From: Candidatus Kaiserbacteria bacterium RIFCSPHIGHO2_01_FULL_53_31
GTDB taxonomy: Bacteria; Patescibacteriota; Minisyncoccia; Phycocordibacterales; Phycocordibacteraceae
Reading direction: 5' to 3'
DNA: 64,000 nucleotides
Assembly (NCBI GenBank): GCA_001781095.1
Contig: MFKU01000010.1
Location: forward strand, 14,254 to 78,253
Under the pieces are notes generated by a model, which ran no database searches, was not told the DNA's origin, and saw only the letters and a list, made by a program, of their open reading frames with translations. A program made the translations under genes and the position numbers. This document shows, piece by piece, positions 5,890-30,370 of this stretch (positions within the stretch are counted from its first letter, which is position 1; every line of letters starts with the position of its first letter).

Positions 5890-7785
5890 TTAGGGCTTTT
5901 CTTTAAATTCTGCGTCAGTTGGCGCAGCCCCTTCTGGTGGCGGTGAATTGCCAGCATCTTTTTTATCCTCCGTAGCCTTGGCGGAGGAGGACATCATCGC
6001 TTCTCCAATTTTCGAGAGAGTTGTTGAAAGTGCTTCAGTGGCGCTCTTGATAGTTCCCGCGTCTTCGCTATTCTTCGCCGTCTTCAAAGCATCAATCTTG
6101 TCCTGCACTTCTTTCACCAATTCGACGCCGACTTTGTCTCCATTATCCTTGATCGCTTTCTCGGCAGCGTACATCGCTTGGTCAGCGATGTTGCGCACTT
6201 CGACGAGCTCTTTACGTTTCTCGTCGTCTGCGGCATGCGCCTGCGCGTCTGCCTGCATCTTCTCGATGTCGGCCTTCGAGAGGCCGGTGGAGCCCTCGAT
6301 GCGAATGCTCTGCTCCTTGCTTGTGGTCTTCTCCTTCGCCTTCACGGTGAGAATGCCGGACGCATCAACGTCGAAGGTCACTTCGACTTGTGGCATACCG
6401 CGCGGCGCGGGCGGGATACCGTCGAGCATAAATTTGCCGAGTGACTTATTGTCGGCGCTCATCGCGCGCTCGCCCTGCGTGATATGAATCTCCACTGACG
6501 GCTGATTGTCGGCTGCCGTCGAGAAGGTTTGCGAGCGACTAGTCGGGATCGCCGTGTTGCGCTCGACAAGCTTCGTCGCGACGCCGCCCATCGTCTCGAT
6601 GGCGAGCGAGAGCGGGATCACATCGACAAGTAAAATGTCCTTCACATCGCCTTGAAGGATGCCCGCTTGGATCGCTGCACCAATCGCGACTACTTCGTCC
6701 GGGTTCACCGTCATGTTTGGCTTCTTGCCAAAGAACTTTTCGACGGCTGCCTGGATGGCAGGCATGCGCGTCTGGCCGCCGACGAGAATCACTTCTTGAA
6801 TATCTTCCACCTTAAACGGTGACGCTTCCATAGCGCGCTTGCTGATCGCCATCGCACGATCGATAAATTCACTCGACAATTCTTCGAGCTTCGCGCGCGA
6901 CATCTTAATCAACAGGTGCCGGGGACCGGACGCATCACTAGTCAAGAATGGAATATTGATTTCGCTCTCCATAGCGCTCGAGAGCTCGATCTTCGCCTTC
7001 TCTGCCGCCTCGTCGAGACGCTGACGGGCGAGCGCATCGCCGAGCACGTCGATGCCGCTTTCCTTTTTGAATTCAGCCGCGAGCCAGCTGATGATCTTCT
7101 GGTCGATATCCTTCCCGCCCAGGTGCGCGTCGCCGTCGGTACTCTTCACCTCGATAACGTCATCGCCCACTTCAAGCACCGAGATGTCGAAGGTGCCTCC
7201 GCCAAAGTCGAACACGGCGATTTTCTCATCCTTTTTCTTGTTGAAACCGTACGCAAGCGCAGCAGCGGTCGGCTCGTTGATGATGCGCTTTACTTCAAGA
7301 CCCGCGATTTGCCCCGCGGCCTTTGTCGCGCTCCGCTGATCATCGTTAAAGTACGCGGGCACCGTAATCACCGCTTCGGTAATCTTCTCACCGAGCCGCG
7401 CTTCAGCATCGGCCTTTAACTTCCCGAGAATCATCGCAGAGAGCTCTTCGGGGCGGTACCATTTATCATTCATCTTGACCTCGATTCCTCCGTTGTCGGC
7501 CTTGCGCATTTCGAAGGGTACCGACGCTTTATCCTTCTGCACGGCAGACTCGTCGAAAGAATGTCCGATGAAACGCTTGATTTGGAAAATGGTATTCAAG
7601 GGGTTGGTCACCGACTGACGCTTAGCGAGCGTGCCGACGATGCGTTCGCCGTTCTTCCCCACCGCGACGATAGAGGGTGTGGTGCGCGCTCCCTCGGCGT
7701 TCTCGAGAACACGTGGCTCACCACCCTCGACGATCGCCATCGCGCAGTTCGTAGTGCCCAAATCAATACCAAGAATTTTTGCCAT
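5890..7785 (-). CDS. dnaK: chaperone DnaK (Hsp70)
   Basis: MAKILGIDLGTTNCAMAIVEGG..., full Hsp70 ATPase and substrate-binding domains; 631 aa. Confidence 0.95.
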   Translation of the reverse strand: MAKILGIDLGTTNCAMAIVEGGEPRVLENAEGARTTPSIVAVGKNGERIVGTLAKRQSVTNPLNTIFQIKRFIGHSFDESAVQKDKASVPFEMRKADNGGIEVKMNDKWYRPEELSAMILGKLKADAEARLGEKITEAVITVPAYFNDDQRSATKAAGQIAGLEVKRIINEPTAAALAYGFNKKKDEKIAVFDFGGGTFDISVLEVGDDVIEVKSTDGDAHLGGKDIDQKIISWLAAEFKKESGIDVLGDALARQRLDEAAEKAKIELSSAMESEINIPFLTSDASGPRHLLIKMSRAKLEELSSEFIDRAMAISKRAMEASPFKVEDIQEVILVGGQTRMPAIQAAVEKFFGKKPNMTVNPDEVVAIGAAIQAGILQGDVKDILLVDVIPLSLAIETMGGVATKLVERNTAIPTSRSQTFSTAADNQPSVEIHITQGERAMSADNKSLGKFMLDGIPPAPRGMPQVEVTFDVDASGILTVKAKEKTTSKEQSIRIEGSTGLSKADIEKMQADAQAHAADDEKRKELVEVRNIADQAMYAAEKAIKDNGDKVGVELVKEVQDKIDALKTAKNSEDAGTIKSATEALSTTLSKIGEAMMSSSAKATEDKKDAGNSPPPEGAAPTDAEFKEKP

Positions 7786-7834
7786 AATTAAATAGGTTAC
7801 GTAGTAATGATTCTACGGAAATGCAGGGAGGAGT

Positions 7835-7899
7835 GCAAGCAAAACAAAAGAGAGTTGAATTGGCCTAGCGGCCCGAGCGCTCTATTTTGTTTTGCTTGC
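7835..7899. repeat. 20-bp-arm inverted repeat in the grpE-dnaK spacer (candidate operator or RNA stem-loop)
   Basis: GCAAGCAAAACAAAAGAGAG ...33 nt... CTCTATTTTGTTTTGCTTGC (19/20 complementary). Not the canonical CIRCE spacing or sequence. Confidence 0.5.
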
Positions 7900-7907
7900 C
7901 GACGACC

Positions 7908-8450
7908 TTATCCGCCAAAATGTGCAACGCGGACTTTTGCCGGACGTATCACCGAGCCGTTAATGCACCAGCCTTTTTCAAGTACCGCTATGATTTTATT
8001 GTCGTTCTCTGAATCTTGAGTGGCGTCCTGCCCAAACGCTTCGTGCATCGCCGGGTCGAACTGCTCGCCCACCTTCCCCACCTCCTCGAGCCCGAGTGAC
8101 GCGAATGCACTCTCGATCTGCCGCGCGATTGCCGTAAATCCTTCTGGAATCTCTCCATGCTCTTTAGAACGCTCGAGCGCGTCAAACGCCGGTAAGAGAG
8201 TTCCAACAGCCTTCACCTTACCTCTCAATTCCGACGCTTTAGTGTCTCCCTCTATTCGCTTCAAGAGATTCACATAATCCGCCTTGGCCCGCTGCCAGCC
8301 GTCCATATATTCCTGTTTCTCCTTCCGACATGCGCTTAGCTCGTCACGCAATTTTGCGATCTTGTTTCCCTCGAGGGACTCGGGATCTTCGCATCCTTCG
8401 GGTGCCTCAGGATCCTCGACCTCGATTTTTACATAATCTTCCCCATCCAT
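7908..8450 (-). CDS. grpE: nucleotide exchange factor GrpE
   Basis: RAKADYVNLLKRIE and LLPAFDALERS motifs; operon position upstream of dnaK. Confidence 0.85.
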   Translation of the reverse strand: MDGEDYVKIEVEDPEAPEGCEDPESLEGNKIAKLRDELSACRKEKQEYMDGWQRAKADYVNLLKRIEGDTKASELRGKVKAVGTLLPAFDALERSKEHGEIPEGFTAIARQIESAFASLGLEEVGKVGEQFDPAMHEAFGQDATQDSENDNKIIAVLEKGWCINGSVIRPAKVRVAHFGG

Positions 8451-8489
8451 CTCTCCACTATGCCTGAAATTGCGATTTTTTTCAAATGT

Positions 8490-8531
8490 TCAATAAAGAT
8501 ATGCAAGAAATCGCCTAACGGCGATTTCTTG
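8490..8531 (-). terminator. rho-independent terminator after rpsI
   Basis: CAAGAAATCGCC-TAAC-GGCGATTTCTTG (12-bp stem), then CATATCTTTATTG on the minus strand. Confidence 0.6.
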
Positions 8532-8536
8532 TGAGA

Positions 8537-8932
8537 CTAACGTTTGCTCCATTGCTTGCGTTTACGCGCCTTCACGAGGCCCGGTTTCTTTCGTTCCTTG
8601 GCGCGCGGATCGCGCGTGAGGAAGTGCGCAGCCTTTAGCTTCGCACGAGTGCCCGGTTCAGCCTTGATAATCGCGCGAGAGATAGCGTGGCGAAGTGCAT
8701 CCGCTTGTGCCGCGATGCCGCCGCCTTCGACATGTGCGGCCACTGCGTAGTGCTCCGCGCTCTCGGCCATCGCGAGCGCCTCCTCGGCGACCTTCGCGCG
8801 TTCACTGGTCTTAAAATAATCTTTGACGCTCTTGCCGTTGACCATCACCGATGACTTCGACGCGGCAATCATCCGCACGCTCGCGGTAGCGGTCTTGCGG
8901 CGCCCGACTGCGGTAATAAATTTCGTTGCCAT
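8537..8932 (-). CDS. rpsI: 30S ribosomal protein S9
   Basis: C-terminal ...KARKRKQWSKR typical of uS9; 131 aa. Confidence 0.92.
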   Translation of the reverse strand: MATKFITAVGRRKTATASVRMIAASKSSVMVNGKSVKDYFKTSERAKVAEEALAMAESAEHYAVAAHVEGGGIAAQADALRHAISRAIIKAEPGTRAKLKAAHFLTRDPRAKERKKPGLVKARKRKQWSKR

Positions 8933-23944: not shown

Positions 23945-25291
23945 TTAGAGAGGCAGATTCGCCGGAGCTTCACTCGTGGCCGACTGAATGCGTTCGAGAC
24001 TCGGTGTCTCAACCGCACGCGACGGTATGTGGAAGATGGTCGCGAGTTCTTCGGTGCTCATCACCATTTCCTTGCCCACTGCCGGCTCATAGAAAAATTG
24101 GCGACGCCGATACGCGTCAATAATCCCGCGACGAAAATGATCTTTAAGCTTCGCGGCACCGATTTCCCAGGGATAATCGTCGAACTTTGCGAGCCAACCA
24201 GTGTGCTTCATGCCATTCCACCCCTCAGACGAGAATTGTTTAAAGAGGCCCGTCATGCCCGCGATGACGGTAACATCAAACTTCCCTTGCTCGACGATAT
24301 ATACCGCACGTGCGCCGACATCAAAAGCGAGTTTCGAAACGTTGCGCTCGATGGCGGCAATCTTTTCCGACTGGCCCTTCGTCGGGTTCGGGAATCCCGG
24401 GCGCTCTTCGCCGGTCACGGGATCGACGTACGGATCGCGAGTCTCCTTCCGAATGTTCGCAACAAGTTCTAACGCTTCATCCTTCCAGGTATAGGGCTTA
24501 CCCGCTTTATTAAGCTTGTTGTATTTCTCGCCCTTATGCATGCGGATGACGAGTTGGAGCCAGAGATATTCGCCCTTCCGCATCGATCCCATGAATTCGA
24601 CTAGGTTCGCGAGCGGGTCGACTTGTTCGGGCTCCTTCTGGACTTTATCGAGTCCATACTCGACATACGTTTTAATCGGTATTGGATCTTTCTCCGTGTA
24701 TTTGAAATCGCAGCCCCAGATACTCCACTCTTCGGGAGTCGCGGTCAGAAACCGTGTGTAATCCTGCGCTTCGACAATCTGCGTCCCCGGGTACTGCGCA
24801 TACATCTGTGCTTCGATGAGACGACGGAAGTTTGCCCGCGTCCAAATATAGAAATGCACCTGGCCCTCGAACGAAGCTATCTCAAGAGAGAACCACGGGC
24901 GCGTCGCGCCCTTCCAATATTTGATATACCACGTGCCCTCGCCGCCCCCGATATGCAGGCCAGAGAGAAACGCCTCCATGGCGAGCGGCGTCTTCACGAG
25001 ATTGCGTGGCGGTTTGATCTCGAGCAGGACATGCTTCTGTTTCGCGGTAAATTCTGAACGGCGGAAAATGACCCAGATTGTCCACGCGCTACCGATAATG
25101 AGCACCGGCAGCCAGAGGGGTGCGAGGAAGAGCGCCATCGAGAGAGCAAGCGAAACGACCTTCGGCATGAACACAGCCGCCATAAAGAGAAGTGCGAGAC
25201 CGAGAATAAAAAGAGGCCATGGCTGGAGCCGTACGCCGAATGTATCTTTCAGTTCGTCCGCTTTCTCATCAATTTTCGAAAACAACCCCAT
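23945..25291 (-). CDS. hypothetical membrane protein (two N-terminal TM segments, ~350-aa soluble domain)
   Basis: 448 aa; no motif recognised. Confidence 0.5.
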   Translation of the reverse strand: MGLFSKIDEKADELKDTFGVRLQPWPLFILGLALLFMAAVFMPKVVSLALSMALFLAPLWLPVLIIGSAWTIWVIFRRSEFTAKQKHVLLEIKPPRNLVKTPLAMEAFLSGLHIGGGEGTWYIKYWKGATRPWFSLEIASFEGQVHFYIWTRANFRRLIEAQMYAQYPGTQIVEAQDYTRFLTATPEEWSIWGCDFKYTEKDPIPIKTYVEYGLDKVQKEPEQVDPLANLVEFMGSMRKGEYLWLQLVIRMHKGEKYNKLNKAGKPYTWKDEALELVANIRKETRDPYVDPVTGEERPGFPNPTKGQSEKIAAIERNVSKLAFDVGARAVYIVEQGKFDVTVIAGMTGLFKQFSSEGWNGMKHTGWLAKFDDYPWEIGAAKLKDHFRRGIIDAYRRRQFFYEPAVGKEMVMSTEELATIFHIPSRAVETPSLERIQSATSEAPANLPL

Positions 25292-25426
25292 GGTTATGTC
25301 ATACAGTATACCCGAGCACTAACCGTAATCGAAGCGCTCGCGTGCACAACCAGTAATGATGCAACCATAGAAATAATCGGTTAGTGCTGGGTATACCAAC
25401 AAAAACGGCGCTGCCAGCGCCGTTTT

Positions 25427-26500
25427 CTACACAACCGAGTAGCGGCCGTCCTTCAGGCGCTTGAAATGTCGAGGGTCGTTCAGATTAACGAGAATGGTGT
25501 TGTCCTTGACGAAGCGCGCGCGTCGCACATGCTTGATGATCTCGTCTTTCTTCAACGGGCCATTCTTCTCGAGCACTTCGTGGATAACGTCGCGCACGAC
25601 GCCAGGAGTGTAGCCCCATTCGGTAAGTGCATAAAGGCCGCGGCCAACGAGTACAAAGCGAGGATCCTTGATGAGCTCGTTATGTGTCGTCGCGATGTGC
25701 GCCTTCTTAGAGAAGAGTGCGCTGATTGCCTTCGAGACTTCAGAGAAGTGCATCGGGGAGCCGTGGCGCTTGATAGCAAGATAGGCGTAGTCGCGGATGC
25801 CTTTTATGCGGATGGCCGGTGCAGTCGCGCGACCCCACTCGGCGAGCGGGTTGCTGCCGATGTGCTTGGAGAGCGTGAGCCAACGTTTCAGAACCTCCTC
25901 ATTCTTATACGCATCGTTGACTCCCTTGAGTTCGTCGAGGAAGCGATCAAGAAGCTCTCCCTCTGGGAACACATCGTCATCTTTGAGCGAGGAATAGAGC
26001 CTAGTGAGCGCCTCGTGGATCTTCTTTGCAGTCGCGGCGTCCACGTGCCAGCGCGCGAGGAACTCGTCAGTCTCACGTTCGCGAATAAATGCAGAGCCGA
26101 CGACGAGCAAGAAACGGAATCGGTTGCGCGTCTTGTCATCTTTCCCGAGCATGTTGAGAAGCGTATCTTCGGCCACGATGGCGCCAAGGGATTCGATGTA
26201 GCGCGCGAGCTCGCCAAACGCTGCGCCTGACTCCTTAAACACCTTGCTTCCGCGGATGGCAGAGAGTCCGGCGGCCTCAATCTGTCGAACGCGCTCGCGA
26301 GTAATATTCAAACGATCCCCGATGGCTTCAAGCGTCTCGCTCTTGGGGCTCGTGCCGAGGCCAAAACGCTGGATCAGCACCTTGCGCGAACGCTCGGACG
26401 CTGCGGCCAGGAGCCGCTTAACGAGGGCGGTGCTGTCGAACGAGAAAGAGGCGGTATTTGCGGCCTTTCCGTTCTTCTTTTTGTTAGTTATGACAGCCAT
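25427..26500 (-). CDS. sigma-70 region-4 HTH domain protein
   Basis: RFGLGTSPKSETLEAIGDRLNITRERVRQIEAAGLSAIR is a near-consensus sigma70_r4; the remaining ~250 aa are unassigned. Confidence 0.55.
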   Translation of the reverse strand: MAVITNKKKNGKAANTASFSFDSTALVKRLLAAASERSRKVLIQRFGLGTSPKSETLEAIGDRLNITRERVRQIEAAGLSAIRGSKVFKESGAAFGELARYIESLGAIVAEDTLLNMLGKDDKTRNRFRFLLVVGSAFIRERETDEFLARWHVDAATAKKIHEALTRLYSSLKDDDVFPEGELLDRFLDELKGVNDAYKNEEVLKRWLTLSKHIGSNPLAEWGRATAPAIRIKGIRDYAYLAIKRHGSPMHFSEVSKAISALFSKKAHIATTHNELIKDPRFVLVGRGLYALTEWGYTPGVVRDVIHEVLEKNGPLKKDEIIKHVRRARFVKDNTILVNLNDPRHFKRLKDGRYSVV

Positions 26501-26546: not shown

Positions 26547-29384
26547 CTACCGGACTACTAGATTGATAATTTCCCCCGCCACATACACGATCCGCGTTGG
26601 CTCTTTACCCCCGAGTGCCATCGCTACGGCAGCAATTTTACGGGCCGCGGACACGGCATCAGCCTCGGGCGCATCTGGTGCGAGTGTTATCGAGCCGCGG
26701 CGTTTGCCGTTGACCTGCACCACAACCTCGATTTTAGTCGATACAAGAAGCTTCTCATCAAATTCTGGCCAGAGAGCGGTATGTATTGACTCTGTGTTTC
26801 CAAGCACTTCCCAAAGTTCTTCGGTAACATGCGGCGCAAACGGTGCTAACAATCGAAGATATTTGCTCCATTGTTCTTCTCCGATTGCCCCCTCCTTTTC
26901 CACGGCATTCAAGAAGATCATCATCTGGCTAACCGCCGTATTAAACTTGAAAGCCTCAATATCACTGCCGACCTTACGGATAGTCTCGTGCAAAAGAGTC
27001 TCGAAGCCCTTAACTGGCTCTTTGCGTACACGCTCGCGTAGATTCCAAAGCCGCTCGATGAATCGCGCAGTGCCCGCGATGGAGCTTGTGCTCCAAGCAG
27101 TCGTATTCTCGAACGGGCCCATGAACATCTCGTACATGCGGAAAGCATCAGCGCCATATTCCTCTACGACGTCATCCGGATTAATGACATTGCCGAGGCG
27201 CTTGCTCATTTTGCGTCCATCCTCAGCAAGGATGAATCCAAGGAATTCGAGTCGTGCAAAAGGTTCTGACGTACTCACCACACCAATGTCATAGAGGAAT
27301 TTGTGCCAGAACCGTGCATAAATAAGGTGACGAACCGCGTGGTCACCTCCGACGTACACATCCACCGGCGCCCAATACTTCTCTTTTTTCGATGACACGA
27401 GTTGATGTGCCTCGTGTGGGTCCATAAAGCGCAAGTAATACCAGGATGAACCAGCCCACTGCGGCATTGTATTGGTCTCGCGCTTCGCTGACCCACCGCA
27501 CTTAGGACACTTTACATTTACCCAGGCATCTATCTCTGCGAGTGGTGACTCTCCCGTCCCGGTCGGTTCGTAGGATTCAACTTCAGGTAGTACCACGGGC
27601 AAGTCTTCATAGGGTACGGGCACGACACCATCTTTAGGGCAGTGGACCACTGGAATCGGTTCGCCCCAGTAGCGCTGACGCGAGAAAACCCAATCGCGGA
27701 GCTTGTATCGAGTCACCTTCTTCCCTCCTACGGCTGCAACAATCTCGTCTTTAGCCTTTTCACTCTCCTGTCCATTAAACTGGTCTGAATTAGTAAGTAT
27801 TCCAGGTTCTGTCCAGACAAAATCATTATTATCGAGCAGATTGCGAGTGAAATCTCCCTCAAAAACGGTGAAGAAATCTTTTAGCTCATCTCTTTTCTTC
27901 CAGACGACCTCATGTAATGCTGCTTCCTTTTCATCCACAAGATCTCTCTCTTCGTTTTCAAGTTCAAAAAAGACGTAATGGAAATGCGCCCATCGGTTCT
28001 GTTTCTTCACGCGGTGGTAGAAGAATGTATTTATCATGACCTCTGGACGCTCGATATGTTTGAGATTCTTGTACCCTGTTTCTTCCCTTATCTCACGCCG
28101 CGCCGTCTCGACGTGATCTTCGCCATCATCAATGCCGCCAGTCACGAGCCCATGCATGAGTACATTTTTCCAGCTGATACAGAGATACGAATCGTCTTTA
28201 GGGTTCCGAACAATTGCACAGACTGCTTCGCGCTTCACGATCTCTTCGTCAGGTCGCAGTCTGGCATCACTTTCCTCCACTGCAACAAACTTAGGCTCCA
28301 CGACATGACGTACGGGTAGATTAAATTTCTGCGCGAATTCGAAATCGCGTTCGTCGTGTGCCGGCACGGCCATAATGGCGCCCGTGCCGTATGAGCCAAG
28401 AACGTAGTCAGCAACGAAGACAGGAATCTCTTCTTTTGTTGCTGGATTGATCGCCGTAACACCTTCTAGTTTAACCCCTGTCTTCTCCTTCCCTTCTGAA
28501 CCACGTTCAATTTCAGTTTTAGAAAACGCTGCCGTAACATACTCGCTCACTTCATGTGCATTCGTGATGTGCCCGCTAGTAGAGAGTTTCTCAATGAGCG
28601 CGTGTTCGGGCGCAAGTACTAGATACGTTGCACCAAATATCGTATCCGGACGCGTCGTGAATACCGATACTGTCTCCTCCCCCACTGCGAAGTTAATTTC
28701 TGCACCCTCTGAACGTCCAATCCAGTTGCGCTGTGCTTCTTTAATATGCTCTGGCCAGTTAAGTTGATCTAGGTCTTTGAGCATCCGGTCAGCATAATCA
28801 GTGATCTTCAGCACCCACTGCGGTAACTTCTTTTTTATTACCGGCGTTCCACAACGTTCACAGACGTTTCCATCAAGGTCCTCATTAGCGAGTCCCGTCA
28901 TGCACGAAGGACACCAGTTGATCGGCTCATCTGATTGGAATGCGAGCCCGTGTTCGAGCATCTTGAGGAAGATCCATTGTGTCCAATGGTAGTAGCTTGG
29001 ATCGGTCGTATTGATCTCTCGCGACCAATCATAGTTAAAGCCAATCTTCTCGAGTTGCGCTTTGAACGTCGCAATGTTCTGCTCGACTGCCTTTCGCGGA
29101 TGCGTCTTGTTCTTCAAGGCGAAGTTCTCGGCAGGGAGACCGAAGGCATCCCATCCCATAGGGTGCAGTACCGAGAAGCCGCGCATCTTTGAGAATCTTG
29201 AATAGATGTCAGTTGCGATATACCCCTTTGGGTGACCAACATGAAGTCCCTCACCAGACGGGTACGGGAACATGTCGAGCACATACTTCTTCTCTTTCTT
29301 TGAATCCTCTTCTGTTTTGTATAGATCGAGCTTCGCCCATTTTTCTTGAGCTTTTTTCTCTATTTCTGAATGGTCGTACGCCAT
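26547..29384 (-). CDS. leuS: leucyl-tRNA synthetase with embedded Nudix hydrolase domain
   Basis: HVGH and KMSKR motifs, editing domain. After VPAHDERDFEFAQKFNLPV a ~120-aa insertion carries a canonical Nudix box GGIDDGEDHVETARREIREETGY; 945 aa. Confidence 0.9.
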   Translation of the reverse strand: MAYDHSEIEKKAQEKWAKLDLYKTEEDSKKEKKYVLDMFPYPSGEGLHVGHPKGYIATDIYSRFSKMRGFSVLHPMGWDAFGLPAENFALKNKTHPRKAVEQNIATFKAQLEKIGFNYDWSREINTTDPSYYHWTQWIFLKMLEHGLAFQSDEPINWCPSCMTGLANEDLDGNVCERCGTPVIKKKLPQWVLKITDYADRMLKDLDQLNWPEHIKEAQRNWIGRSEGAEINFAVGEETVSVFTTRPDTIFGATYLVLAPEHALIEKLSTSGHITNAHEVSEYVTAAFSKTEIERGSEGKEKTGVKLEGVTAINPATKEEIPVFVADYVLGSYGTGAIMAVPAHDERDFEFAQKFNLPVRHVVEPKFVAVEESDARLRPDEEIVKREAVCAIVRNPKDDSYLCISWKNVLMHGLVTGGIDDGEDHVETARREIREETGYKNLKHIERPEVMINTFFYHRVKKQNRWAHFHYVFFELENEERDLVDEKEAALHEVVWKKRDELKDFFTVFEGDFTRNLLDNNDFVWTEPGILTNSDQFNGQESEKAKDEIVAAVGGKKVTRYKLRDWVFSRQRYWGEPIPVVHCPKDGVVPVPYEDLPVVLPEVESYEPTGTGESPLAEIDAWVNVKCPKCGGSAKRETNTMPQWAGSSWYYLRFMDPHEAHQLVSSKKEKYWAPVDVYVGGDHAVRHLIYARFWHKFLYDIGVVSTSEPFARLEFLGFILAEDGRKMSKRLGNVINPDDVVEEYGADAFRMYEMFMGPFENTTAWSTSSIAGTARFIERLWNLRERVRKEPVKGFETLLHETIRKVGSDIEAFKFNTAVSQMMIFLNAVEKEGAIGEEQWSKYLRLLAPFAPHVTEELWEVLGNTESIHTALWPEFDEKLLVSTKIEVVVQVNGKRRGSITLAPDAPEADAVSAARKIAAVAMALGGKEPTRIVYVAGEIINLVVR

Positions 29385-29419: not shown

Positions 29420-30370
29420 CTAGAGCTGGACCTTGCTAAGTGGTGGGTAGAAGCTAGGATCAATCGTGCGCTCAAAGCAATAGTTCCCAGTCGGGTGCTG
29501 CCAATTGTCTACACCCTTAATACCTGCTGGCCGTGGAACCATATCGCCAGCAACAGAAGACTGGGTGCCGCGACTTTGACTGTTGAAGTCCGCGCAAATC
29601 TTAAACGTTAACGAGCCAGTCGCTTCATATCCGTACGCTGCTTGAGTTTGAGGATCATTCGGTACGGGGCCATACATAAGAGGATTATTAAGATCTTCTA
29701 TATTTGCCGGCAAAGCTCGCTTGGCCTGATAATAACTCACGACTTGCGACTGGATATTTTGCAGATCGTTTACCTTTTGCGCGTCGAAGCGGGCGAGTCG
29801 CGCTTGTGCCGGCGTACCGACGATAAAGAATCCCGAGACGATCGCCGCCGCAAGGATACCAGCGACACCAATACTCACATATCGCTTACGCATCGGGAAC
29901 GCCATCCAGTACCCGCGCAGGTCAGCGATGAAGTGCATAAACACACCGGCTGCAACCAAGAAGATGACGAGAATCTTGAGCAGGAATGATGTTGTGAGCT
30001 CTTCGCCATTTAAGAAGGTTGTGAGAAGCGTGACCAAGTCACCAGCGATCGCGAGACCTGCGACAAAGAGTGTGAAGATGATTGCCCAGCGGCGCACCCA
30101 GATCTCGCCGCGCGAAGGATCGCGCGCGATGTCGCCTCGGATAACGCGCATGAGGGCGAGATATACTGGGAACAGAATAATGATTGATGCCATCTGGAAG
30201 CTTATACCGCTTTGATATGGATCGACGGGATAATAGGTGAGCGCGTTCGGAAACGTGTAGTCAATGTAACTAAAGAGAAGAAAGATGAACGCGATGATAC
30301 TCCAATAGAAGGCGATGATCGCACCCGCCCACAAGAAGAAATCTTTTGGTGTTGTGTGTGGTTTGTCCAT
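29420..30370 (-). CDS. hypothetical polytopic membrane protein with extracytoplasmic C-terminal domain
   Basis: About seven TM segments, then a ~130-aa Pro/Gln-rich domain. Confidence 0.5.
   Translation of the reverse strand: MDKPHTTPKDFFLWAGAIIAFYWSIIAFIFLLFSYIDYTFPNALTYYPVDPYQSGISFQMASIIILFPVYLALMRVIRGDIARDPSRGEIWVRRWAIIFTLFVAGLAIAGDLVTLLTTFLNGEELTTSFLLKILVIFLVAAGVFMHFIADLRGYWMAFPMRKRYVSIGVAGILAAAIVSGFFIVGTPAQARLARFDAQKVNDLQNIQSQVVSYYQAKRALPANIEDLNNPLMYGPVPNDPQTQAAYGYEATGSLTFKICADFNSQSRGTQSSVAGDMVPRPAGIKGVDNWQHPTGNYCFERTIDPSFYPPLSKVQL

Follow-up and report, generated by a model that had tools for sequence, protein, structure and literature searches.

This analysis concerns a leuS gene in a 64,000-nucleotide (64-kb) stretch of DNA from Candidatus Kaiserbacteria bacterium RIFCSPHIGHO2_01_FULL_53_31 (contig MFKU01000010.1, positions 14,254 to 78,253); the whole stretch is referred to below as the window. 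The product of the gene, a leucyl-tRNA synthetase (LeuRS), contains a Nudix hydrolase module nested within its CP1 editing domain. The initial annotation, made from the sequence of the window, had noticed a Nudix domain inserted in LeuRS and suspected that such an architecture was undescribed, and our literature searches found no account of a Nudix domain in LeuRS or in any other aminoacyl-tRNA synthetase (aaRS). Although the component parts are familiar and the sequences publicly available, we found no description of the architecture, of the Nudix subfamily involved, or of the cassette dynamics reported here.

The Nudix module and its LeuRS host

The host protein is a bacterial-type LeuRS. 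It scores 990.5 bits against the TIGR00396 (leuS_bact) equivalog profile (cut-off 548.4) in two stretches that are split by the insert, and a phmmer comparison with the LeuRS of Thermus thermophilus (PDB 1H3N) gives E = 3.9e-222. An AlphaFold2 (AF2) model of the whole protein has a mean predicted local distance difference test score (pLDDT) of 85.5 and a predicted template-modeling score of 0.76. As judged from its motifs, the synthetase is otherwise complete, with HIGH, KMSKS and editing residues intact. The part of CP1 that precedes the insert matches PF13603 with 204.2 bits (profile positions 1-144 of 185), and the T-rich motif TTRPDT (aa 243-248) and the AHDERD motif (containing D344) align with the T. 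thermophilus editing motifs. None of T243, T244, T248, D344, R346 and D347 varies across 50 aligned LeuRS, some of which carry a Nudix module and some not. In the AF2 model, the part of CP1 that follows the insert contains strands at aa 528-530 and 555-560 and a helix at aa 541-551.

Table 1. Features of the leuS gene and its Nudix insert, in window coordinates
Feature	Residues	Coordinates	Strand	Basis
leuS open reading frame, bacterial-type LeuRS hosting the insert	945 aa	26547..29384	minus	open reading frame list, TIGR00396, 1H3N, AF2
HIGH-type motif HVGH	48-51	29232..29243	minus	motif match; invariant in the 50-LeuRS alignment
CP1 editing domain before the insert	219-366	28287..28730	minus	PF13603
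Nudix module: N-terminal beta-strand and loop, alpha/beta/alpha core, two C-terminal helices	365-522	27819..28292	minus	alignment to 1H3N
Nudix box GGIDDGEDHVETARREIREETGY, predicted catalytic E431, E434, E435	416-438	28071..28139	minus	exact regular-expression match to GX5EX7REUXEEXGU
Signature residues outside the box	R385, W405, K460, N463, R464, L475, E487, H491, W495	27900..28232	minus	80-98% conserved
Remainder of CP1 editing domain after the insert, back to the catalytic core	523-560	27705..27818	minus	aligns to T. thermophilus 376 onward
Position of the leucine-specific domain (T. thermophilus ~580-637), domain absent	720-726	27207..27227	minus	HMMER alignment jumps from query 720/T. 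thermophilus 579 to query 726/T. thermophilus 638
KMSKS-type motif KMSKR	725-729	27198..27212	minus	K725, M726, S727, K728 invariant in the 50-LeuRS alignment
Left (N-terminal side) recombination breakpoint interval	~353-365	28290..28328	minus	fine identity map
Right (C-terminal side) recombination breakpoint interval	~520-550	27735..27827	minus	fine identity map

Alignment to 1H3N delimits the insert. Residues 3-364 of the window protein correspond to T. thermophilus residues 4-364, residues 523-720 to 376-579, and residues 726-945 to 638-877, so that an insert of about 158 aa stands in place of a loop of ~11 residues (T. thermophilus 365-375) within CP1. The initial annotation had placed it between two blocks that are both found in the LeuRS, VPAHDERDFEFAQKF (aa 340-354, 28323-28367) and YKLRDWVFSRQRYWG (aa 560-574, 27663-27707). 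It had given the insert a length of ~120 aa, which is too short, and the interval 27827-28200, which covers most of the insert and misses ~90 nt at its N-terminal (high-coordinate) end. It had also proposed that the Nudix domain takes the place of the leucine-specific domain, and the alignment rules this out: the gap where that domain would lie is a separate site, just before KMSKR. The leucine-specific domain is present in T. thermophilus and is not universal in bacterial LeuRS. It is also missing from Nudix-free relatives of the window protein, and thus its absence is unrelated to the insert.

The insert passes the Pfam test for a Nudix domain comfortably (PF00293, 50.7 bits, E = 2.4e-13, gathering cut-off 21.1, aa 384-511, 27852-28235), and its Nudix box, GGIDDGEDHVETARREIREETGY, is perfect, as had been claimed. 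AF2 models the module with a pLDDT of 93.9 as an alpha/beta/alpha sandwich that presents the box on a loop-helix-loop, and on this model the Nudix domain folds as an autonomous excursion from LeuRS. The module is predicted to be a self-contained, catalytically competent Nudix pyrophosphohydrolase. The GC content falls to 0.41 at window positions 27750-28050, which cover part of the insert, compared to ~0.50-0.56 in flanking leuS. In all 12 genes examined, the GC content of the insert and its GC content at third codon positions are below those of the rest of leuS, and the GC content of the insert tracks host composition. There is no second copy of this Nudix subfamily in the window.

Distribution, loss and exchange of the module

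The architecture is widespread among relatives of the window protein. The 120 closest LeuRS were drawn from 5.8 billion protein clusters (NCBI, JGI, ENA and Logan). Of these, 88 have a single Nudix domain, at the position occupied in the window protein (site A, after aa 364); one has two Nudix domains, two have three, and 29 have none. Species-representative genomes of GTDB yielded 13 loci with the insert, and in 12 of these it lies within a full LeuRS open reading frame (944-1411 aa) with the box intact. All of these genomes are metagenome-assembled genomes (MAGs) of the Patescibacteria/Paceibacterota type. A metagenome scan with the single module as query recovered 18 loci with the cassette type of the window, and in every one of them the insert occupies site A of a LeuRS. 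The 90%-identity cluster of the window protein includes UniProt A0A1F6CID0/OGG48612.1 (Candidatus Kaiserbacteria, from Rifle aquifer MAGs), which is annotated only as "leucine--tRNA ligase".

An assembly or annotation artefact, in which a chimeric contig joined a Nudix gene into leuS, has practically no chance of accounting for these data. The modest dip in GC over the insert could be read that way, and nothing else could. The reading frame is continuous, and the same architecture is found in 12 GTDB species genomes, in the 18 metagenome contigs, in 91 of the 120 LeuRS clusters and in a 124-kb contig (L001). These many independent assemblies rule out a chimera, and the insertion noticed in the initial annotation is confirmed. 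The leuS of L001 (4900-8840) is split into about six gene calls by frameshifts, and the style of the contig name suggests a long-read assembly. The frameshifts explain the short proteins consisting of an editing domain and a Nudix domain (P0001-P0003) that appeared in the first protein search.

Loss of the module has recurred at loci that are syntenic and orthologous. The 29 LeuRS without a Nudix domain occupy ~15 or more tips dispersed over a crown clade in which the site-A Nudix is otherwise universal, and for several of them the nearest neighbor, with 83-89% core identity, bears a Nudix domain. Three Nudix-free leuS genes are syntenic with that of the window (YchF, DUF5671, leuS, Sigma70_r4, DUF8128, YceG, MnmA), which rules out paralogy of the LeuRS with and without the module. 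No PF00293 gene lies within ±10 kb of these three genes, which rules out gene fission that left a Nudix gene beside leuS. Where the module is missing, the site consists of a short loop of variable sequence (VVE-x3-10-YTGxGxLxNSGEF), and filled sites have the module at exactly that position.

The leuS block is syntenic in both Nudix-plus and Nudix-minus genomes. In the window (23945-26500 and 29420-30370), a DUF5671 membrane protein is encoded upstream of leuS and a Sigma70_r4 and HARE-HTH protein downstream. A 448-aa protein, also downstream, has no Pfam match and corresponds, as judged by synteny, to the DUF8128 protein of relatives. The only RNA gene detected in the 64 kb is a tRNA-Tyr (GTA) at 636-720; no rRNA or other Rfam family scored above threshold in the window.

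The history of the module is decoupled from that of the LeuRS backbone. Among the 108 LeuRS that have one Nudix domain, at site A, the identity of the Nudix domain between pairs is uncorrelated with that of the LeuRS core (Pearson 0.08, Spearman ~0), and Nudix identity averages 35% at a core identity of 70-80%, the same as at 40-50%. The Nudix domains form 27 types at 50% identity, which are intermixed on a neighbor-joining tree of the cores. On this tree the Fitch count of changes between types is 67, compared to 26 under strict vertical descent and 80 ± 2 for shuffled types; the neighbor-joining trees are without branch support, and metagenomic cluster representatives served as the sequences. 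The window protein itself illustrates the pattern. The 25 proteins closest to it in the core (76-81% identical) have Nudix domains that are just 24-44% identical to its own, and its closest Nudix domains (59-75%) reside in cores that are 47-72% identical.

A comparison in bins of 20 aa locates the exchanged segment. Proteins related to the window protein through their cores are closer to it everywhere but at aa 361-520, and there the proteins related through their Nudix domains are closer instead (identities of 0.46-0.77 versus 0.11-0.54). The breakpoints of this mosaic are the edges of the module. Residues 521-555 are variable in both groups, which limits the resolution of the right breakpoint. 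Rapid divergence or saturation of the Nudix domain is ruled out as the cause of the decoupling. In the 18 metagenome loci with the cassette type of the window, Nudix identity (58-75%) mostly exceeds backbone identity (44-62%), and there are 215 pairs in which Nudix identity exceeds core identity. We conclude that the Nudix module has been horizontally replaced like a cassette. A search of the insert for flanking repeats or target-site duplications gave short, chance-like matches only.

A Nudix subfamily in synthetases, and other guests of LeuRS

With the insert alone as query, phmmer found 367 proteins at E <= 0.001 among 1.84 billion representatives, and the hosts of the best 150 of these were classified by comparison with the two halves of the window LeuRS. 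LeuRS, whole or in fragments, make up most of the best 150. In about 35-40 short proteins (under ~260 aa) no LeuRS part was detected, and we classed these as free-standing; one that was checked on its contig is a stand-alone gene. The free-standing proteins are ~160 aa long, and their gene contexts are unrelated and uninformative. No multidomain host other than an aaRS was identified among the best 150 of the 367 matches.

LeuRS of Patescibacteria host the subfamily in about five different loops at the protein surface, with one to three copies per protein. In addition to site A, these are site B1 (after aa ~208 of the window protein), site B2 (after aa ~236), site D (aa ~585) and site C (aa ~627-635, in the second zinc module). 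Four LeuRS of 941-1309 aa (P0008, P0009, P0272 and P0275) have three copies, two in tandem at B1 and one at A, and another (P0044) has two tandem copies at A. The subfamily also occurs in a class II synthetase. Five clusters of archaeal-type prolyl-tRNA synthetase (ProRS) contain it (P0130 and P0294-P0297); in P0130, which matches PF00587, PF03129 and PF09180, the Nudix domain is flanked by the anticodon-binding domain and the C-terminal zinc domain. The nearest Nudix-free relatives of these clusters are annotated as Nanoarchaeota or Woesearchaeota, and the hosts are apparently DPANN archaea, an assignment that follows the annotation of those relatives only. One ProRS-Nudix gene lies on an intact 11.9-kb contig (L021:5593-7524), where the gene upstream encodes a tRNA_bind (PF01588) protein.

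From the alignment of 257 domain copies we define what is, on sequence, a sharply delimited and uncharacterized Nudix subfamily with the signature R..W..GG..E..EE.G..K..NR..L..E...H...W. G416, G417, E431, E434, E435 and G437 are conserved in at least 95% of the copies, and the signature residues outside the box are 80-98% conserved across free copies and LeuRS sites A, B1 and C. Copies from ProRS keep all 15 signature residues, as do free copies, those at sites A, B1 and C, and each of the three copies of P0008, the triple-copy protein that was aligned in detail. A tree of the Nudix domains by site is star-like, poorly resolved and of qualitative use only.

Other domains have entered the loops of LeuRS as well. 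In the leuS of L001, the C-terminal piece (6955-8835) has a phosphatase-like HAD_2 domain (PF13419, 52.9 bits) in the second zinc module, where it replaces the CPKCGG knuckle; together with the site-A Nudix, this makes two different hydrolase guests in one synthetase. A leuS from a MAG labeled Uhrbacteria (L005:4378-8679, 1411-1434 aa) has, in addition to a Nudix domain, a DUF559/Vsr-like endonuclease domain (PF04480, 111 bits) at site B2, close to the CP1 entry; the presence of an endonuclease within an aaRS might point to a mechanism of mobility. In five further LeuRS (P0173, P0197, P0259, P0274 and P0249), site B2 holds an alpha/beta-hydrolase (Ser_hydrolase PF06821 and related; for example, P0173) or a Ham1/ITPase domain (P0249; PF01725, 54 bits). 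These hydrolase guests mostly occur alongside a Nudix domain, and P0274 has the alpha/beta-hydrolase without one. Yet another five LeuRS (P0052, P0078, P0117, P0129 and P0143) have uncharacterized insertions of ~130-200 aa after the equivalent of aa ~585, where the second zinc module has its first knuckle. In the window protein this knuckle is HCPKD rather than CxxC (aa 581-584, 27632-27643) and the second, CPKCGG, is intact (aa 626-629, 27498-27509). Metal binding by the second zinc module may be altered. The same module is an insertion hotspot in relatives (sites C and D).

Several known systems invite comparison. In a 2026 survey of domain insertions (PMC13114784), the editing domain of LeuRS is reported as "insertion-exclusive", found only as a guest, with "zero instances of host function". 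Other aaRSs with extra modules (CP1 itself, the N-acetyltransferase domain-containing isoleucine--tRNA ligase NF040702, and the appended domains of eukaryotic synthetases) likewise have an autonomous catalytic domain within a synthetase, and in both cases loops of class I aaRSs serve as hosts. They differ from the present case in that the guest described here is nested in CP1, which is itself an inserted domain, and in that it can sit in one or more of several loops, is present in differing numbers of copies, and has been exchanged and lost. Like inteins and homing endonucleases, the Nudix module sits in frame in conserved regions of an essential gene, is polymorphic for presence and absence at orthologous sites, recurs at specific sites, and has a phylogeny discordant with that of its host gene. 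Unlike inteins, it remains part of the protein after maturation and preserves the active site of an enzyme, and it has no evident mobility mechanism and no flanking repeats. Pfam detects aaRS domains and NUDIX only in the LeuRS open reading frame of the window, with no Hint, intein or endonuclease domain, and the module junctions lack the Cys/Ser/Thr...His-Asn pattern of splice junctions.

Possible functions of the module

We infer that the Nudix domain is an accessory enzyme that is tethered to the synthetase and acts outside aminoacylation and editing. It would hydrolyze a compound in which nucleosides are linked through polyphosphate, most plausibly dinucleoside polyphosphates (NpnN) of the diadenosine tetraphosphate (Ap4A) type. 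Synthetases are an established enzymatic source of Ap4A. Such compounds would form when the aminoacyl-adenylate reacts with ATP, and a tethered Nudix domain could destroy them at the source. We tentatively favor ApnA-type dinucleoside polyphosphates, or related nucleotides linked through a 5'-polyphosphate, as the substrate, and give this assignment somewhat less than an even chance. It is based on the production of Ap4A by aaRSs and on the weak nearest neighbors of the insert, all of which belong to the RppH, ApnA-hydrolase and decapping group. The best profile matches in the PDB are AvrM14 (34.8 bits), which we take to be an mRNA-decapping effector, and the lupin Ap4A hydrolase (32 bits), and both are weak.

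Several observations weigh against this reading. The insert scores 24.9-25.4 bits and a free-standing relative (P0004) 33.6 bits against the RppH/NudH (PRK00714) equivalogs, far below the cut-offs of 116-118, and the insert reaches 23.5 bits against NudI (NF012016), for which the cut-off is 95. NudI is also the top Foldseek match (template-modeling score 0.56-0.64), and the fold matches in general are generic (0.55-0.69, at 13-25% identity). With no threshold of a curated family reached and only generic fold matches, the substrate is a guess. In addition, repeated loss of the module indicates that LeuRS does not need it, and the presence of unrelated hydrolases in the same loops suggests that LeuRS is simply a permissive carrier.

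The comparison with characterized enzymes also brings out differences. The insert is only 12-23% identical to RppH/NudH and ApnA hydrolases (those of E. coli (RppH), lupin and C. elegans, T. thermophilus Ndx1 and M. tuberculosis Rv2985). The signature of its subfamily differs from theirs (K-x2-N-R and E-x3-H-x3-W), and they are free-standing enzymes, unlike a domain that is nested in aaRSs. Similarly, the Enterococcus faecalis "MutT/nudix family protein" in PDB 2AZW, the title of which names no specific function, is 14% identical and stands alone. Membership in a known anti-phage defense system was rejected: at E <= 0.01, no model in PADLOC-DB matched the insert, either of two free-standing relatives, or the ProRS that carries the module. 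A phage origin was rejected as well, as a scan of viral contigs gave matches at the level of the box only and PHROGs gave generic Nudix families.

The main rival to Ap4A disposal is that the module is a passive passenger on a permissive carrier. It would then be a general house-cleaning enzyme for compounds such as aberrant nucleoside triphosphates or nucleoside diphosphate sugars, with no mechanistic tie to aminoacylation. The loops of LeuRS tolerate insertions, and an essential, constitutive gene would guarantee expression in a reduced genome. The guests of the same loops in relatives (HAD_2, Ser_hydrolase/alpha-beta hydrolase, Ham1/ITPase and DUF559) fit this idea. Nudix, Ham1 and HAD are classical families of nucleotide-pool sanitizing enzymes, and their co-occurrence in these loops, the repeated loss and replacement of the insert, and the free-standing copies in unrelated gene contexts are all as expected for such a passenger. 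However, the same subfamily is also found in the structurally unrelated class II ProRS, apparently in another domain of life, and the 150 best matches, which were classified, include no multidomain host outside the aaRSs. Moreover, up to three intact copies in one LeuRS would be an odd means of securing expression. We consider the passenger explanation a serious possibility, though an unlikely one.

A different activity, on the ends of RNA or tRNA in a setting of conflict, seems to us rather improbable. Here the enzyme would remove a polyphosphate-linked group, such as a 5'-pyrophosphate (as RppH does) or an Np4N cap. In a variant, it would help to repair tRNA 3'-CCA ends that toxSAS-type toxins have pyrophosphorylated, with HAD or alpha/beta-hydrolase inserts finishing the repair. 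CP1 is the place where the tRNA 3' end docks during editing by LeuRS, which suits this idea, as do the best sub-threshold matches (RppH and the presumed decapping enzyme AvrM14) and the joint presence of Nudix and HAD in the LeuRS of L001. The swapping of cassettes, the 27 divergent types, the variation in copy number and the frequent loss also resemble turnover driven by conflict, but neutral gene conversion constrained to conserved flanks could give the same pattern. The subfamily has no PADLOC matches and no members in viral contigs. Its insertion sites, one of them in ProRS, are spread out and show no evident convergence on the path of the tRNA.

A bolder form of the conflict reading, to which we assign only a slim chance, is that the Nudix domain is a mobile, conflict-driven aaRS "plug-in" of ultra-small symbionts (Candidate Phyla Radiation (CPR) bacteria and DPANN archaea). 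Cassettes would be swapped into defined loops and act on nucleotide-modified ends of RNA or tRNA or on nucleotides derived from toxins or alarmones. If this were true, examples of the reactions would be the removal of Np4N caps and of the 3'-pyrophosphate that toxSAS enzymes add to tRNA, and the HAD, alpha/beta-hydrolase and Ham1 inserts would complete a built-in toolkit for repair of tRNA and nucleotides.

The initial annotation had raised the possibility that the module hydrolyzes mischarged or adenylated intermediates, Ap4A or other nucleotides; of these, substrates of the Ap4A type would fit best. The location inside the editing domain, and the fact that LeuRS and ProRS are both error-prone, could point to a pre-transfer editing module that hydrolyzes non-cognate aminoacyl-adenylates released by either enzyme. 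Aminoacyl-AMP is an acyl-phosphate and does not have the nucleoside diphosphate-X pyrophosphate linkage, and no Nudix enzyme is known to hydrolyze it. Hydrolysis of aminoacyl-adenylates or mischarged tRNA by the module is chemically unlikely. The post-transfer editing residues are fully kept, close orthologs function without the insert, and free-standing forms exist; we regard a role in pre-transfer editing as very doubtful. Equally doubtful is a non-catalytic role as a nucleotide-binding sensor, a dimerization or scaffolding element, or a structural spacer, as the metal-binding residues E431, E434 and E435 reach 97-100% conservation among 257 copies whose identity is otherwise ~35%, which would be hard to explain without catalysis.

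The architecture of aaRSs in bacteria has been considered largely fixed, and here most members of a large clade of Patescibacteria have an enzymatic domain in CP1. The subfamily recurs at about five sites in LeuRS and again in a synthetase of class II, a pattern suggesting that selection has repeatedly linked a specific Nudix activity with aminoacylation in organisms with minimal genomes. Should the substrate be of the Ap4A type, this would be the first built-in disposal of a side-product of an aaRS. The module also provides a tractable example of domain-level horizontal exchange within an essential gene. Its clean loss and replacement amount to a natural experiment, in which orthologs with and without the Nudix domain are ~87% identical in the core.

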